A stretch of DNA of 25,734 nucleotides, taken from NCBI GenBank assembly GCA_964651185.1, contig CAZYWR010000349.1, positions 1 through 25,734 on the forward strand, written 5' to 3'. Under the pieces are notes generated by a model that was not told where the DNA came from, ran no database searches, and saw nothing but the letters and a program-made list of their open reading frames with translations. The DNA comes from an uncultured Polyangiales bacterium (lineage in GTDB: Bacteria > Myxococcota_A > Polyangia > Polyangiales > DASUME01). How positions within the stretch are numbered: the stretch's first letter is position 1; each line of letters opens with the position of its first letter. The position numbers and the translations under genes are program-made. Of the stretch, positions 2,404-10,069 are shown piece after piece.

Positions 2404-3903
2404 CTACCCGCGCAAGAGCGCAGGGAAGTTGCGGCGGCCGGGGAAGTCGAGGGCGAGGGCTTGGGCGAGGATGCTGTAGACGTCGCCTTCGGCGAGGCTC
2501 TGCTGTTTGTCGGGGGTGCCGGTTTGAGGGTCGAAGCCGTAGGTGAGGCCGGTCTTGGGGTCCACGCCGCCGTAGATGGCGTTGCCTTGGAGTAAGGGGG
2601 AGATGAGGACCGAGCCGTTGTTCATGTGGTGGCCGGTGCCCCAGGCGGCGGCGTCTTTGCTGCGCGTCTTGTCGCGGCCGAACTCCGTCGCGATGTAGAT
2701 CAGCGAGCGGTCCCACATCTTACCTAGCGCGGGATCGCCTAGATAATCGTAAGTCTTGAGTAAGGTGATGAGCTGATCGAGCAAGCTCGCGGTGCGGCCC
2801 CACATGATGCTTTGCACGATGCGATGCAGGTTGTGGGAGAAGTCGAACGCGATCGGTGTGCCGGTGATCTCGCCGTCGGCCAACACGACGGGGTCCGGCT
2901 TGTGGCCGAGCGTGACGCTCACGGAGACGCCGTAGTAAGCGAGCAAGAACGCCAGCGCGACTTGGGCTTGCGTATTGTCTTGGTCGAGCAGGGGCAGGCG
3001 CTGGCGCAAATCGGCTGCGAGCGGCGACGTTTGCAAGCCGTACTTCGGATCGACTTGCGTGGGGTCGAGCAGGAGCAGCTTGTCGACCAAGCCCGCCTGC
3101 TCGAGCACGACGCTCGTCTGACTGCGCGTGGACAGATACTTGCTCAGACGCGGGCTGTCGCGGAAGGTTCGCGCGAACAGCGAGCGCCGGTCGAGCTCGT
3201 TACGCACCATGCGCGCGTTTTCGATGAGCTCGCCCGCCGGAGCCCCGGCTATGCCGCGATAGCCATGCGTTCCTGCCGCGAACAAGAGCGGGGTGGCGAT
3301 GATCTCATGACGCGCCTCTTGCGGGACGGTGTTATCGAGGCCGTGCCGGAGATAGCCGTCGACGGACATGTTGCAGCTCGGCAGCGGCATGCCGCCGCCG
3401 TAGCGTATGGCGGCCTCTTCCATGATCGTGCGGCCGCGGTTGATGCCGGAGCCGTTGAGCGCGCGCTGCTGGCCGACGGCGTGGTTTACGCTCGATACGC
3501 CGTGCGCCACGATCGCCATGTCTTGGCCGTGGCGCACCAAGAGATCGCCCATCTCGGGCGGTGTGGCGTAGAAGCTGTAGTTGCCGAGCAGCTTCACGTA
3601 GCGGATGTTGCTGCCCGCGGGCTGCGCCACGAGCTGCTCCGGGAAGACATTCAATGTGCTCGCGAGATCGGTGTCACCGACTTCCGTGTCCACGATGGGC
3701 AGGAAGCTATCGATGATGCTCGCGCCGCCGTGCGCGCAGAACACGAACAAGAGCTTGCGGTCTTGCGGAGCGACGGCGGTGGGCATCGTTTGGCCGCGCA
3801 CGTGCCGCGTCTTCAGCATTGCGCTCACACCAGCCGCGACGGCGCCGGCCGCTCCAAGCTGCATCAGACGCCTTCGACTGAATTTTGGATCTCGCATACC
3901 CAT
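2404..3903 (-). CDS. DUF1501-like protein with twin-arginine (Tat) signal, 499 aa
   Basis: N-terminus KFSRRRLMQLGAAGAVAAGVSA (Tat-like); LLFVFCAHGGASIIDSF, FDFSHNLH, IYIATEFGR, GTGHH, ISPLLQGNAIYGG motifs resemble DUF1501. Confidence 0.75.
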   Translation of the reverse strand: MGMRDPKFSRRRLMQLGAAGAVAAGVSAMLKTRHVRGQTMPTAVAPQDRKLLFVFCAHGGASIIDSFLPIVDTEVGDTDLASTLNVFPEQLVAQPAGSNIRYVKLLGNYSFYATPPEMGDLLVRHGQDMAIVAHGVSSVNHAVGQQRALNGSGINRGRTIMEEAAIRYGGGMPLPSCNMSVDGYLRHGLDNTVPQEARHEIIATPLLFAAGTHGYRGIAGAPAGELIENARMVRNELDRRSLFARTFRDSPRLSKYLSTRSQTSVVLEQAGLVDKLLLLDPTQVDPKYGLQTSPLAADLRQRLPLLDQDNTQAQVALAFLLAYYGVSVSVTLGHKPDPVVLADGEITGTPIAFDFSHNLHRIVQSIMWGRTASLLDQLITLLKTYDYLGDPALGKMWDRSLIYIATEFGRDKTRSKDAAAWGTGHHMNNGSVLISPLLQGNAIYGGVDPKTGLTYGFDPQTGTPDKQQSLAEGDVYSILAQALALDFPGRRNFPALLRG

Positions 3904-3910
3904 CCCGGAG

Positions 3911-4557
3911 TCAGAAGAACAGAAACTCAGTCGTGGAGCCGATCGCGAAGCAGCTCAACGTGGCGAAGTCTGCCGCGGGCACGGGCTTCCCAGCTTGGTC
4001 GCGCGTCAACGCCGCCACCAACGGGAGCTCGTGCGCGTCCGGATCGCGCGCCAGAAGGCGCCGGTAGAGCGCGCTGACCGTCTCCGTGACGCTGGGATGG
4101 CCCGGCTCGGGGGCGTCGCCTTCGAGATCGAGCGCGCCGAACACGCGCGCCGCTTGCGGTCCGGCCGCGCGATCGAGCGCGACTCGCTGGCCGCACGCGC
4201 TCAAGAGCACGCGATCGATCGCGGTGGGCGTCGTCGCGAGCGGCTCGGCGCTCGGCTCGAGCAGACCGGTCGCGAACGGGTCGTTGCCGCCGAGCGGCAC
4301 CAGGTGCACCTCATGGATGCACGACGCGCGACCGAGCTCGTTGCACAGCTCTTCGGGCGCAAGCTCGAGCGCGCGCGTCAGATCAGCCTCGAGCGCGGCG
4401 TAGCGCTTCCACTGCAGGTTGGGCTGCGTGGACGCCCGGTACGCCGCCGTCTCCGTGTTCGGGAGGGCCGGCTGTGGTTCCGATCCTTTGGAACAACCGC
4501 TCGCCATGGCGAAAGCCAGGCTCAGGACCGCAGCCCATGAAAAACCCGATCGCTTCA

Positions 4558-4561
<4 letters not shown>
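3911..4561 (-). CDS. Hypothetical lipoprotein, 216 aa (middle gene of the operon)
   Basis: ATG 4561 overlaps the upstream TGA (ATGA). MMKRSGFSWAAVLSLAFAMASG-C is a lipobox. The ORF-track extension to 4759 overlaps the upstream gene and is unlikely. Confidence 0.8.
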
Positions 4562-6036
<1,475 letters not shown>

Positions 6037-7070: not shown

Positions 7071-7997
7071 TCAGCAAGGCAGCGACAAAGCTCGCGCGCG
7101 ACGATGGCGCACCTTGCGCCGACTCGCGAGCGCGACGAGCGTCATCAGCGCGAGGCTTCCCTGTAGATCCCCGCGGCCCGTGCTGCAGCCGGAATCCGAA
7201 TCTGAGTGCTTCGCTTCCGAGTCGTCTCCGGCGTCCGCCAGCGGTGCGCCTGCATCGCTCGCTGCGCCGGCGTCGTGCGAGACCGCGGGGGCGCGGGCAT
7301 CATCGTTGCCGGATGTCGGCGCGCGACCTGCATCCAGGGTCGCGCCGGTCGCGGCGTCGGTCGCAGCCGGCGCCGTGGCCCCCGCATCGCTGTGAGGGCC
7401 TTCTGCGCCTGCATCCACGGGACCGCTGTTCGCGCCTGCATCGCCGGCGGCGCCCGCGTCTTGCGTGGGCTTCATGTACTTTGCGCCAGGCGAGAGAACG
7501 GCGACCTCAACGCGCAAGTCCGTGGGCACGTATTGCGGGTCGCCCTGCGGCTTGTTGTTGTTCGTGTCCTTGAGGATGAGCGGGATCCGCTTGACGCCTT
7601 TGCTCCAGTCGACGCCGGACGGTTGATAAAAATTAGAAAACGCGGTGGTCCACTCGTATTCGCCCGTCGTCGTGTAGACCGGCGATTGATCCGTGCAGCT
7701 GAATTGCGGCGTGCCCTCGAAGCAGACTTGGAAGCGCGTGGGCGCGTTGGTCGGCTTGGTCTTCACTTGCAGAAGCACGTGCACCGAGCCACTCGCGTAG
7801 TCCACGGGCGCCTTCCAGTTCGCTGGCGTGCTCGGCGAGGGATCGACGTAGTAGTGCGAGTCCGTCGTGGTGTCCGCAGCGTGCGTATATGTGACATCCA
7901 CCGCGATGAACTGCTCTGCACGCGCCTTGTCGCTGGCCGCCCACACGACGCAAGCAGCGCTCCAGCTAATAAAAATAAGGTGCGGTCGGTTCAGCAC
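7071..7997 (-). CDS. Secreted protein with MYXO-CTERM-like C-terminal anchor, 308 aa
   Basis: GTG 7997 with GGAG 7 nt upstream; signal peptide ending ARA-EQ; globular domain; DAG-rich linker; tail SDSGCSTGRGDLQGSLALMTLVALASRRKVR (GC, hydrophobic, basic). Confidence 0.8.
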   Translation of the reverse strand: MLNRPHLIFISWSAACVVWAASDKARAEQFIAVDVTYTHAADTTTDSHYYVDPSPSTPANWKAPVDYASGSVHVLLQVKTKPTNAPTRFQVCFEGTPQFSCTDQSPVYTTTGEYEWTTAFSNFYQPSGVDWSKGVKRIPLILKDTNNNKPQGDPQYVPTDLRVEVAVLSPGAKYMKPTQDAGAAGDAGANSGPVDAGAEGPHSDAGATAPAATDAATGATLDAGRAPTSGNDDARAPAVSHDAGAASDAGAPLADAGDDSEAKHSDSDSGCSTGRGDLQGSLALMTLVALASRRKVRHRRARALSLPC

Positions 7998-8020
7998 GTG
8001 ACAGCTCCGCTCTGAGTTGA

Positions 8021-8287
8021 GAGCTCCCACGCTACCGGTGCCGGCAGCCCGACGCAATGCGTGTGCTCCCCGGGAGCCCCCAATCCACAGCCCCGCTTGC
8101 GTCGAGGGCTCCCGGGAGCCCTCCAGTACCGACGTGTTCCTTCGAAGGCGCTCCCGGAGGCCTTCCAAAGCCTTCGAGCGACATCGCCGAGCCCCCCAGG
8201 AGCTCTTCAAACCTCGTGATCGCGTTAATCGACCTCACCAGGGCTCCCGGGAACCCTGGCAGCTTTTGCCATCGACTGGGTCCCTGG
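8021..8287. repeat. Array of five clear (up to seven) degenerate palindromes with core GCTCCCGGGAGC and unrelated spacers
   Basis: 8065-8077 GCTCCC-C-GGGAGC; 8104-8123 perfect 20-bp GAGGGCTCCCGGGAGCCCTC; 8144-8165 GAAGGC..GCCTTC; 8189-8205 GAGC..GCTC; 8238-8259 CCAGGGCTCCCGGGAACCCTGG (1 mismatch); half-sites at 8021-8028 and 8278-8287. Confidence 0.75.
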
Positions 8288-8328
8288 CGCATAGCGCACC
8301 CCGTCCGATGAGGCGGCGCCCCGCGCGC

Positions 8329-8357
8329 TTGACCGCAGGTACGGCGGTCACTATTTC
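8329..8357 (+). promoter_or_regulatory. Inverted repeat overlapping a putative -35/-10 promoter of the 8366 gene
   Basis: TGACCGC-N7-GCGGTCA (8330-8350); TTGACC (8329-8334)-N17-TATTTC (8352-8357); ATG at 8366. Confidence 0.45.
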
Positions 8358-8365
8358 GATGTGCC

Positions 8366-10069
8366 ATGCACGGTATCCACCGCGTTTGCCCCTCGGCATG
8401 CTGGCGCTTCCTCGCATTCGTTGCGCTCTGGCCGGGCGCTCCCGGATGCGCGGGCGAAGGCAAGCTGACCCGTGCGGTCGTCGAGGTTTACAGCGACTTG
8501 GGACCAGAGCTCGCCAGCGTCAGCGTGCAGATCACCAACGAGCAAAGCGGCAAGCAAAGCGAACCATACGCCTTTGAGGCGGCCGCCGAGCGCGATCCCG
8601 AAAAGCTGTTGCTCTCGTTCGCGGTGGCACCGCCCCCCGGTGACGCATCCGGCTCCTTCATCGTGAGTGTCAGGGGGCTCGACGCGAAAGGAGAATTCCT
8701 TGTCGAAGGGCACGCCCGTGGAAGTTTCATACCCGGCGAGTTCACGACCGTACGCGTCGACCTAAATCGCGCATGCCAGGGGCTCGAGTGCAATTGTCCC
8801 CCCGACGCGGACCTCGAGCACGAGCCCGGCAGCACATCGGGTAGCGGCTGCGTCGATGACGATGGAGCCGCGGCGGAACGTGACGCCAACGACGGCGCGC
8901 AGGCGGCACGCAACGACGCGGCCAGCGCCGTGGGCCTCGACGCAGCGTCGATGGTGATGACGCAAGATGCCGCGGCCGATGCCGGTGCCTCCCCGGATGC
9001 TTCGGGTGAATCCTCGTGCCAAGCCATCACGGAGGTGTGCGATGGCACGGACAACGACTGCGACGGTGAGATCGACGATGGCGTGAAGATCCGCTGCTGG
9101 GCGGACGCGGATGGAGACGGCTACGCCAGCGCGGGTGCAACGGTCACCGAAACCTGCGACGCATGCGGCGCGAAGCAAACAGCGATCGAGCCGGTCATGG
9201 GCAAGATCGACTGCGACGACACGAGCGCGACGAAGAGTCCCGGCGCGACGGATATCTGCGGCGATCGCATCGACAACGATTGCGACGGCACGCCCGACGA
9301 TGAGTCCAACAACGCGTGCGGCGGCCCGTGTTCGGTTCAGCTGCCGGGCAAGGTGAGCGACCCCTGCAACAATGGCCAGCAGGGGGCCTGCGCACGCGCT
9401 GGGACATACGAGTGCAAGGCTGACCACTCGATGGTCTGCAATGCTCCCACGGTGCAACCGGCAGCCGTAGATACCTGCGGCGATGGAAGCGACAATGACT
9501 GCGACGGGCATGTCGATGAGGACGGCCTAACCTGGTACCCAGATTGCGACGGGGATGGCTTTGGCGGAGGCGGAGCAACCAAGACTTCTTGCTCGAAGCC
9601 CGCATCCGCCACGCGCTGCGCTTCTTGGGTCAGTGGCCCGATCGACAACATGGATTGCGACGATGGGAACGCCTTTCACTATCCTGGCGCAACCTACAAC
9701 CTCGGTCTCCCCACGCCGGCATTCAGCGATGGTAACGGCGTTTGGCAGGCGTTGTCGCTCCCATTCCCCGACACGAAGTTGTTTGACGGCGACGTCAATT
9801 GTGACGGGCGAGTCGAACAGATCCTGCCGATGTTCGAGCGGAAGACCGAGAGCTCGACCGAGTCCATGAAGTACCATATGTTCCCTGCCTGTACGTCTCA
9901 GAACCGGTGTGCGACTGAAGCGACGTCCGACCAGGACGAGTGCTATGAGTACTCGCTGACGACATCCGTGACGCAGTGCGGACTGGTGCCTTTCTTCATC
10001 AGCTACAAAGATGAGCTTACCGATGCGTGCGTGCGTTCAGATGAGAACCTGTACATCGTCTGCAGGTAA
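8366..10069 (+). CDS. Cys/Asp-rich lipoprotein with repeated putative metal-binding motifs (MopE-like CDGxDNDCDG repeats), 567 aa
   Basis: Signal ending GAPG-C; EVCDGTDNDCDGEIDDG, DICGDRIDNDCDGTPDD, DTCGDGSDNDCDGHVDED, WADADGDGY, WYPDCDGDGFG, DCDD motifs. Confidence 0.85.
   Translation: MHGIHRVCPSACWRFLAFVALWPGAPGCAGEGKLTRAVVEVYSDLGPELASVSVQITNEQSGKQSEPYAFEAAAERDPEKLLLSFAVAPPPGDASGSFIVSVRGLDAKGEFLVEGHARGSFIPGEFTTVRVDLNRACQGLECNCPPDADLEHEPGSTSGSGCVDDDGAAAERDANDGAQAARNDAASAVGLDAASMVMTQDAAADAGASPDASGESSCQAITEVCDGTDNDCDGEIDDGVKIRCWADADGDGYASAGATVTETCDACGAKQTAIEPVMGKIDCDDTSATKSPGATDICGDRIDNDCDGTPDDESNNACGGPCSVQLPGKVSDPCNNGQQGACARAGTYECKADHSMVCNAPTVQPAAVDTCGDGSDNDCDGHVDEDGLTWYPDCDGDGFGGGGATKTSCSKPASATRCASWVSGPIDNMDCDDGNAFHYPGATYNLGLPTPAFSDGNGVWQALSLPFPDTKLFDGDVNCDGRVEQILPMFERKTESSTESMKYHMFPACTSQNRCATEATSDQDECYEYSLTTSVTQCGLVPFFISYKDELTDACVRSDENLYIVCR

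Follow-up and report, generated by a model that had tools for sequence, protein, structure and literature searches.

The window analysed here, a stretch of 25,734 nt of contig CAZYWR010000349.1 (assembly GCA_964651185.1) from an uncultured Polyangiales bacterium, has between two divergent genes a non-coding gap of 367 bp (7998–8365) that holds an array of short GC-rich palindromes. This array is an orphan member of a family of palindrome arrays with a pitch of ~42 bp that occurs in Polyangia and is tied statistically to the gene of a protein of ~270 amino acids (aa), here called gene A. The family has apparently not been described so far. Taken alone, the window array is a small non-coding curiosity, and its value is as a lead to the recurrent pairing of gene A and array in soil myxobacteria.

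The window array

The array is real and far beyond chance, and it consists of six units rather than the seven sites claimed in the initial annotation. Five of the units are solid palindromes, and their centres (Table 1) agree with those given there. The sixth unit is decayed and retains an in-register left half-site only; this half-site and the claimed seventh site at ~8281 are both below threshold in the two weight-matrix scans described below. The centre-to-centre spacings are 42.5, 41.5, 42 and 51.5 bp, and they bear out the earlier values as far as the step of about five turns, while the last claimed step of 32 bp leads to the 8281 site and has no support. The sequence of unit 2, GAGGGCTCCCGGGAGCCCTC, is at the same time the consensus of the whole family. 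A further perfect 10-bp palindrome, CCTTCGAAGG at 8139–8148, is the outer part of the extended dyad of unit 3 (GAAGGC...GCCTTC). The linkers had been described as unrelated, and column identities gave no detectable mutual similarity between them. Because they are unrelated, Tandem Repeats Finder returned nothing for the array.

The genome that contains the window is 7.05 Mb long with 68% G+C, and its assembly is 90% complete and highly fragmented. The genome-wide motif search suggested in the initial annotation found the clustered motif to be unique to the window array: GGCTCCCGGGAGCC with at most one mismatch is confined to it, and weight-matrix scanning detected no second cluster in the genome. 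A second weight matrix was trained solely on arrays from other genomes, and with this matrix (hits of at least 9 bits) there are four hits in the 367-bp gap versus 0.017 expected (Poisson P = 3.7e-9). A shuffle check had also been suggested, and by this measure the excess of generic palindromes is only modest (9 versus 4.5 ± 2.0, with 31 of 1000 dinucleotide shuffles reaching 9). Other CTCCCGGGAG sites in the window (18769 and 21188) turned out to be chance matches within coding sequence.

An array family and the gene beside it

The palindrome was followed through 401 genomes of the order, Sorangium and Minicystis included, the relatives being labelled as Myxococcales or Polyangiales metagenome-assembled genomes. 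The pattern GCTYCCGGRAGC-N30-GCTYCCGGRAGC, counted per genome beside a reversed control pattern, matches 40 of these genomes, which belong to 26 genera. There are 1–4 arrays per genome and no solitary copies, and no exact two-core match was found in viral contigs. Twenty retrieved loci have runs of 40–43-bp steps with up to 10–11 units (e.g., 10 in G394 and 5 in G006), and steps of 82–85 bp are seen where one core has decayed. In G006, a genome of the same genus as that of the window, one contig has three exact cores in steps of 42 bp, a second contig has the exact core as well, and both arrays comprise 5–7 units. A few arrays have a period of 21 bp with the same kind of core. Arrays of this period, of the GCTCCCGGGACC-GGGGGATCG type, stand at the orthologous loci L043 and L044 of two large genomes (G299:C1:6186878 and G348:C1:7418), where the flanking genes are ~85% identical. 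The sites occupied by arrays are unrelated to each other and comprise divergent gaps, convergent gaps, the 5′ side of single genes and the neighbourhood of an IS91-type transposase gene. No overlap of an array with a frame of coding composition was found.

When 31 units from four genomes are aligned, the information is confined to the dyad and its immediate surroundings, ~20 bp in all (G.GGCTCCCGGGAGCC.tCC), and the linkers hold ~0 bits. The linkers are near-identical or alternating in five arrays (L068, L060, L091, L029, and L036) and saturated in the window and in G006. We read this as arrays that would grow by tandem duplication, after which the linkers drift and the core is retained, probably through selection, gene conversion or both. 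The flanks of the core belong, in this subfamily, to the outer part of the 20-bp dyad, and the unit thus has no orientation; TCCA was tried as a marker of array orientation relative to gene A and proved inconsistent. Annotators should be warned that such arrays are neither clustered regularly interspaced short palindromic repeats (CRISPR), nor tandem interspaced guide RNA (TIGR) arrays, nor repetitive extragenic palindromic (REP) elements, and that they break short-read assemblies, often leaving the array at a contig end.

Some arrays contain additional short palindromes. In a metagenome contig carrying P0059 (L098, 2350–2677) each 42–43-bp unit holds GCGGTCGGACCGC and TGGATCCA, two different palindromes separated by about half a period. 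In several other arrays, too, short palindromes containing GATC or TCGA are repeated at half period. Those found at half period in units 2–4 of the window (ACGT, TCGA, and GATC) are weak and not significant.

The window array has at least four dyads of the GCT...AGC type at a pitch of 40–43 bp in non-coding DNA, as is characteristic of the family, and no gene-A homologue within ~1.5 kb. It is an orphan in the same way as the array on contig C46 of G006 (L013). That array is followed by a fragment resembling the 3′ half of a tRNA (GGTTCGAATCCC T-arm, 3520–3560) and then by an IS91-type transposase gene (4103–4963), which suggests an integration scar; ARAGORN found no whole tRNA beside it.

Gene A was found by an all-versus-all comparison of array flanks, in which it adjoins an array in G006, G394 (twice), and G129 (twice). 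It is present in 128 of the 401 genomes, often in at least six copies and often ~300 bp from a contig end. An array with a period of 39–44 bp lies within 1.5 kb in 13 of 30 retrieved gene-A loci by a strict k-mer criterion, and in several more by eye. The background is one such region in 123 kb of control loci, and 21 regions in the 7.05 Mb of the window's genome (about 3 per Mb), among them several obvious coding repeats. The enrichment of arrays beside gene A is ~45-fold.

Arrays often lie at most a few hundred bp from a solitary gene A and some begin at its stop codon, as in a metagenomic locus whose array is identical in eight samples. Seven 43-bp units lie upstream of gene A in Sorangium sp. 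So ce136, and six 43-bp units lie just downstream of it in S. cellulosum So0157-2 (CP003969, gene A at ~12,907,568–12,908,437). Two genomes (G225 and G082) have clusters of gene-A paralogues with an array beside most copies. In G129 a segmental duplication of 12.69 kb (L034, C1:3433000–3452500) comprises an ABC-3C-type ABC ATPase gene, gene A, a 42-bp array and a PP2C phosphatase gene, in this order. Between the two copies of this unit are genes for a MopE/M43 peptidase, a metallophosphoesterase and the CTD6 and MC2 components of ABC-3C. More generally, the neighbours of gene A vary and are often conflict genes: ParE with its antitoxin, a PD-(D/E)XK nuclease plus methylase, an AHJR-like nuclease with HEPN/RES, CHAT/NB-ARC, and ABC-3C. 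We also considered that arrays might bracket gene A as terminal inverted repeats, but what looked like a second array in L068 proved to be coding sequence of low complexity at the tail of gene A itself.

The type of core follows the clade of gene A. The core GCTCCCGGGAGC goes with the proteins of G394, G103, G006, and G129, the core GGCGGTYSGACCGCC with gene A of Sorangium, and GGCTGCCGCGCAGCC, GCTTAGCTAAGC, and AACGCTCTGAGCGTT with other gene-A clades. G006 has gene A beside an array with the core of the window, in addition to its orphan array of that same core.

Proposed phased DNA sites and rival explanations

We tentatively regard the window region as a helically phased array of sites for a homodimeric, sequence-specific DNA-binding protein, probably the product of gene A, and give this reading somewhat less than an even chance. 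Each unit consists of a 16–20-bp dyad followed by a linker of ~22–26 bp that is free in sequence, with a total near 42 bp. Lengths of 21 and 42 bp are whole helical turns, and a unit length held near 42 bp would bring successive dimers to about the same side of the helix, at intervals of four turns with one gap of five. The reader of the arrays would be gene A or a factor of similar specificity, and the window copy would be an old and diverged orphan array. If it is still occupied, an array between two divergent promoters could silence or insulate them.

The departures from the consensus speak for DNA rather than RNA. In the GCTCCCGGGAGC subfamily there are 116 non-consensus core pairs, of which 5 are Watson-Crick compensated, 44 are of the G.T/A.C type and 67 are true mismatches. 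As such pairs are almost never compensated, it is the sequence that is kept and not hairpin pairing. The free linkers of constrained length, the pitches of 21 and 42 bp, the 51.5-bp gap and the dyad symmetry fit better with a dimeric DNA-binding protein than with a folded RNA. Together with the uncompensated cores and the dedicated neighbour gene, they make phased sites for a dimeric protein, one of several options raised in the initial annotation, the one that we favour.

Arrayed centromere or iteron sites beside the gene of their binder offer a comparable architecture, above all sopC, the centromere of the F plasmid, which has 12 tandem 43-bp units, each with a 16-bp inverted repeat bound by a dimer of the ParB-family protein SopB, immediately downstream of sopB. 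The arrays described here resemble sopC in their period of 40–43 bp, in having one dyad of 12–20 bp per unit and in their frequent position directly beside a small protein gene. In sopC, however, the unit is nearly invariant from end to end, while the present family retains just the dyad. Gene A is not ParB-like and no fold match was found for it; nor does a family match connect it with centromere-binding proteins of the ParB, ParR or ParG type. No gene for a ParA-type ATPase or other partition nucleoside triphosphatase (ParM or TubZ) was found in seven annotated gene-A neighbourhoods or among the tested genes of the window, and the family modules differ further in being chromosomal, multicopy and located in variable islands. 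The sopC/parS architecture, with arrayed dyads at a fixed pitch beside a protein gene, is seen in related loci; in the window there is no partner gene.

If gene A does read the array, it would represent a new DNA-binding fold with built-in specificity variants. A wider proposal, which we consider possible although doubtful, is that Polyangia (Sorangium, Minicystis and many uncultured relatives) carry an undescribed, multicopy two-part module among toxin-antitoxin, restriction-modification and ABC-3C genes. It would be made up of a ~270-aa protein of unmatched fold and its own phased palindrome array, with specificity classes, orphan arrays as docking sites acting in trans and a one-faced nucleoprotein filament for silencing or marking chromosomal regions. 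If true, it would add a new class of proteins that read specific DNA sequences, possibly with a part in defence or in conflicts between mobile elements. The pairing of gene A with a co-varying palindrome array is present in cultured Sorangium, such as So0157-2, and is hence directly testable.

Several observations weigh against phased sites read by gene A. The protein has no match in Pfam, NCBIfam, PADLOC or PHROGs and thus no recognisable DNA-binding domain, and it has no sequence relative in PDB. Its AlphaFold2 model, with twelve helices, is confident (predicted local distance difference test 88, predicted template modelling score 0.82). Foldseek did not match it in BFVD or in PDB (entries released up to April 2026); the top hit had E = 0.37 and a TM score <0.2. 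Gene A was not found in the assembly of the window's genome, whose 90% completeness and high fragmentation leave its absence unproven; it is on this account that the window array is called an orphan. Most of the ~22 retrieved arrays with the core type of the window lack gene A in the surrounding 3 kb, although contig ends truncate five arrays, and spacings of 34, 37, 44, 48, and 54 bp are also found in the retrieved arrays. Orthologues of the flanking gene for a 308-aa protein (Table 1) were inspected in seven genomes, and both the array and the neighbouring lipoprotein gene are missing there; the array is accordingly probably not an old conserved operator of the flanking genes.

Further points on the same side come from a sister strain, ~94% identical, from other soil metagenomes. 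Between the two strains the cores are no better kept than the linkers (about 7 versus 3 changes), and indels of -3 and +1 in the sister strain alter the spacing, so that the phasing is not strict. The sister strain also has six clustered substitutions at unit 4 (8194, 8200, 8204, 8207, 8210, and 8215), which turn the right-hand flank into AGCCCTCCAG, as in unit 2. Such clustering suggests gene conversion or homogenisation. Since gene conversion alone could keep the cores alike without selection, a repeat of selfish or neutral nature has to be taken seriously as a rival.

According to this rival, which we hold to be unlikely, the arrays would be a hairpin-prone 42-bp minisatellite with gene-converted cores and no dedicated reader, behaving like REP, BIME or MIRU elements and formed by tandem duplication where intergenic DNA permits it, and their proximity to gene A would come from shared islands that are variable and repeat-rich. 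Such a repeat would agree with the occurrence of arrays at unrelated loci, including beside an IS91 transposase, and often at contig ends, with the plain tandem repeats of young arrays, with the lack of an array at orthologues of the flanking gene and with the pattern of changes between the two strains. It is harder to reconcile with the small number of arrays per genome and the lack of solitary copies, unlike REPs, or with a core of 12–20 bp that is the same across 26 genera though the linkers are saturated. Nor would it predict a ~45-fold enrichment beside one protein family, or a core type that tracks the clade of that protein.

The known elements closest to such a repeat are REPs and bacterial interspersed mosaic elements (BIMEs), and a REP/BIME-like cluster had been among the options of the initial annotation. 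The arrays are similar to these elements in being short GC-rich extragenic palindromes that are clustered at unrelated intergenic sites and probably homogenised by conversion. Yet there are no dispersed single copies, whereas REPs are scattered in tens to hundreds, and the window units are symmetric dyads at a fixed pitch of ~42 bp, without the alternating orientation and S/L linkers of BIMEs. The search for a REP-associated tyrosine transposase (Y1/RAYT, PF01797), likewise suggested there, gave no match in the 90%-complete genome of the window and matches in six control genomes, and this option was abandoned. The REP tag rule is a conserved GTAG/CGTC as given in PMC3733652, and the tag is inconsistent here, with CGTC before unit 2 alone.

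An element that acts at the RNA level seems to us quite unlikely. In that case the array would be transcribed and cut into hairpin RNAs of ~42 nt, and the neighbouring protein would bind these RNAs as happens in type III toxin-antitoxin or TIGR systems; the window would hold an orphan RNA array. Type III systems (ToxIN, CptIN, and TenpIN) have tandem units of 34–45 nt beside a single protein gene, among defence genes, and the unit of 40–43 nt seen here is within this range. Tandem units of ~42 nt likewise adjoin a single gene among defence genes in our loci, with arrays directly up- or downstream of the solitary gene A amid ParE toxin-antitoxin, restriction-modification, ABC-3C, and HEPN/restriction endonuclease genes. 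However, the antitoxin repeats of type III systems are almost the same along the entire unit and are known only from the upstream side, on the same strand and behind a terminator, and the toxins are ToxN-type endoribonucleases, whereas in the present family the linkers are free, the arrays may lie downstream and the product of gene A is helical rather than ToxN-type.

TIGR stem-loop arrays are also regular palindromes with variable sequence between them, located before or after a small protein gene in loci linked to mobile elements or defence, and their unit is a stem around two box C–9-nt spacer–box D intervals of 14 nt each with a loop of ~9 nt between them (PMC12045711; bioRxiv 10.64898/2026.09.09.750476). 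What made the TIGR-Tas idea attractive was CCA/CAA after and TCG before most window cores. A perfect CCA-N9-TG interval is found in unit 2 only, and the interior between the half-palindromes is 24–30 nt, too short for two 14-nt intervals plus loop. A search for the Nop domain (PF01798) gave nothing in the window's genome, and gene A likewise lacks a Nop match and is, by fold search, neither Nop- nor ToxN-like. TIGR-Tas was rejected on these grounds, together with the duplication-derived linkers and the uncompensated cores.

Both strands of the array fold better than shuffles (z of -4.0 and -3.4), but these scores reflect only pairing between like palindromes. An Rfam scan (E up to 10) gave chance-level hits only, with E of at least 0.6 and far below the gathering scores. 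This result, and the mere 5 of 116 non-consensus core pairs that are compensated, count against the multi-hairpin non-coding RNA that had been another of the earlier options. In old arrays the linkers are free of information, which a protein-bound folded RNA would not tolerate. Neither a sigma-70-like promoter nor an intrinsic terminator was predicted in 7900–8450, and no RNA run holding the region was found.

A local operator array, at which an ordinary transcription factor encoded elsewhere, and not gene A, would co-regulate the two divergent genes for secreted proteins, is in our view very unlikely. The position in a divergent promoter region would suit it, several other orphan arrays lie upstream of genes or between divergent genes, and the cores are intact despite the missing gene A. 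On the other hand, neither regulator nor mobile-element genes were found among the window's open reading frames tested, the motif occurs at no other promoter of the genome, six sites over 240 bp are unusual for a simple operator, and the same arrays lie between convergent genes elsewhere.

The last two explanations, a coding repeat (repeats of the LEGSREPS type in an N-terminally extended product of the minus-strand gene) and a decayed CRISPR array, can be considered refuted for practical purposes. An open frame does run from 8210 into the minus-strand gene, and 42 and 51 bp are multiples of 3. However, the G+C contents at the second and third codon positions are 0.68 and 0.72 in the extension versus 0.56 and 0.77 in the gene, so that the coding contrast is missing, the +1 and -3 indels of the sister strain fall inside the extension, homologues start after the signal peptide, and arrays of the family also step by 41 and 43 bp. 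The GSREP-type coding repeats that had been named as a possible refutation of the array are thereby set aside. With CRISPR the array shares partly palindromic repeats regularly interspaced by unrelated sequence, and the search for cas genes elsewhere did find two cas1 genes in the genome (C1479:895–1737 and C314:2208–3071). Yet the cas1-linked CRISPR-like arrays of this genome (C314:3772–3989 and C401:1094–1472) have periods of 71–74 bp and repeats unrelated to the window palindrome. CRISPR repeats are near-identical, measure about 23–48 nt and have unique spacers at least similar in length; a period of 42 bp, made up of a ~20-bp repeat and a "spacer" of ~22 bp, falls short of this range, and here the repeats are degenerate and the "spacers" derive from duplication. 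Of the decayed orphan CRISPR-like array proposed earlier, the term orphan is nevertheless apt, since the partner gene is missing here.

Flanking genes and further periodic regions

The array units and the two genes that flank them are listed in Table 1.

Table 1. Positions and properties of the window array units and of the flanking genes.
Feature	Position	Centre	Strand	Sequence	Remarks
Sixth unit, decayed, left half-site only	8021–8028			GAGCTCCC	Exact 42-bp register (counted from 8017) with the next unit
Unit 1, 13-nt palindrome	8065–8077	8071		GCTCCCCGGGAGC	15.0 bits (first matrix)
Unit 2, perfect 20-bp palindrome	8104–8123	8113.5		GAGGGCTCCCGGGAGCCCTC	100% complementary; 22 bits with both matrices
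Unit 3, imperfect palindrome	8144–8165	~8155		GAAGGCGCTCCCGGAGGCCTTC	Left arm has one extra base; 17.8 bits (first matrix), 16.3 bits (other-genomes matrix)
Unit 4, most decayed core	8189–8205	8197		GAGCCCCCCAGGAGCTC	16.7 bits (first matrix), 10.0 bits (other-genomes matrix)
Unit 5, 22-bp palindrome	8238–8259	8248.5		CCAGGGCTCCCGGGAACCCTGG	One mismatch, 93% complementary; 51.5 bp (about 5 turns) from unit 4; 18.7 bits (first matrix), 14.8 bits (other-genomes matrix)
Gene for 308-aa secreted protein	7071–7997		-		GTG start at 7997; no Pfam family
Gene for 567-aa putative lipoprotein with MopE-type metal-binding motifs	8366–10069		+		PF11617 (5e-15); ATG start at 8366

The gene of the 308-aa protein has a GGAG ribosome site at 8005–8008, seven bases upstream of its start. 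The N-terminus of the protein is signal-peptide-like, and its homologues align only from residue ~25 onward. Within the coding sequence of this gene a k-mer periodicity scan showed a weak periodicity of ~42 bp (7229–7409), which is probably a coding repeat. The 567-aa protein has a lipobox-like N-terminal (...ALWPGAPGCAG), and no full-length orthologue of it was found among 41 relatives. A paralogue of its N-terminal 90 residues (56% identity) is encoded elsewhere in the same genome (C301:1957–2217), on a contig where the palindrome array was not found. The remaining part of the window is ordinary chromosome, with genes for a FadB-like enzyme, a chemotaxis cluster, sensor kinases and secreted proteins.

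Other regions with a 42- or 43-bp period in the window's genome were also considered as relatives of the array, but several of them proved to be coding repeats, and the others are small tandem repeats that are apparently unrelated. Among them are further non-coding tandem arrays of 3–5 units with a period of 42–43 bp at C1364:2310–2480, C1083:3010–3200, and C1335:1810–1940. One of these three lies just 3′ of an ssb-like gene and has an internal hairpin, GAGCTCGCGCACA...TGTGCGAGCGCTC.

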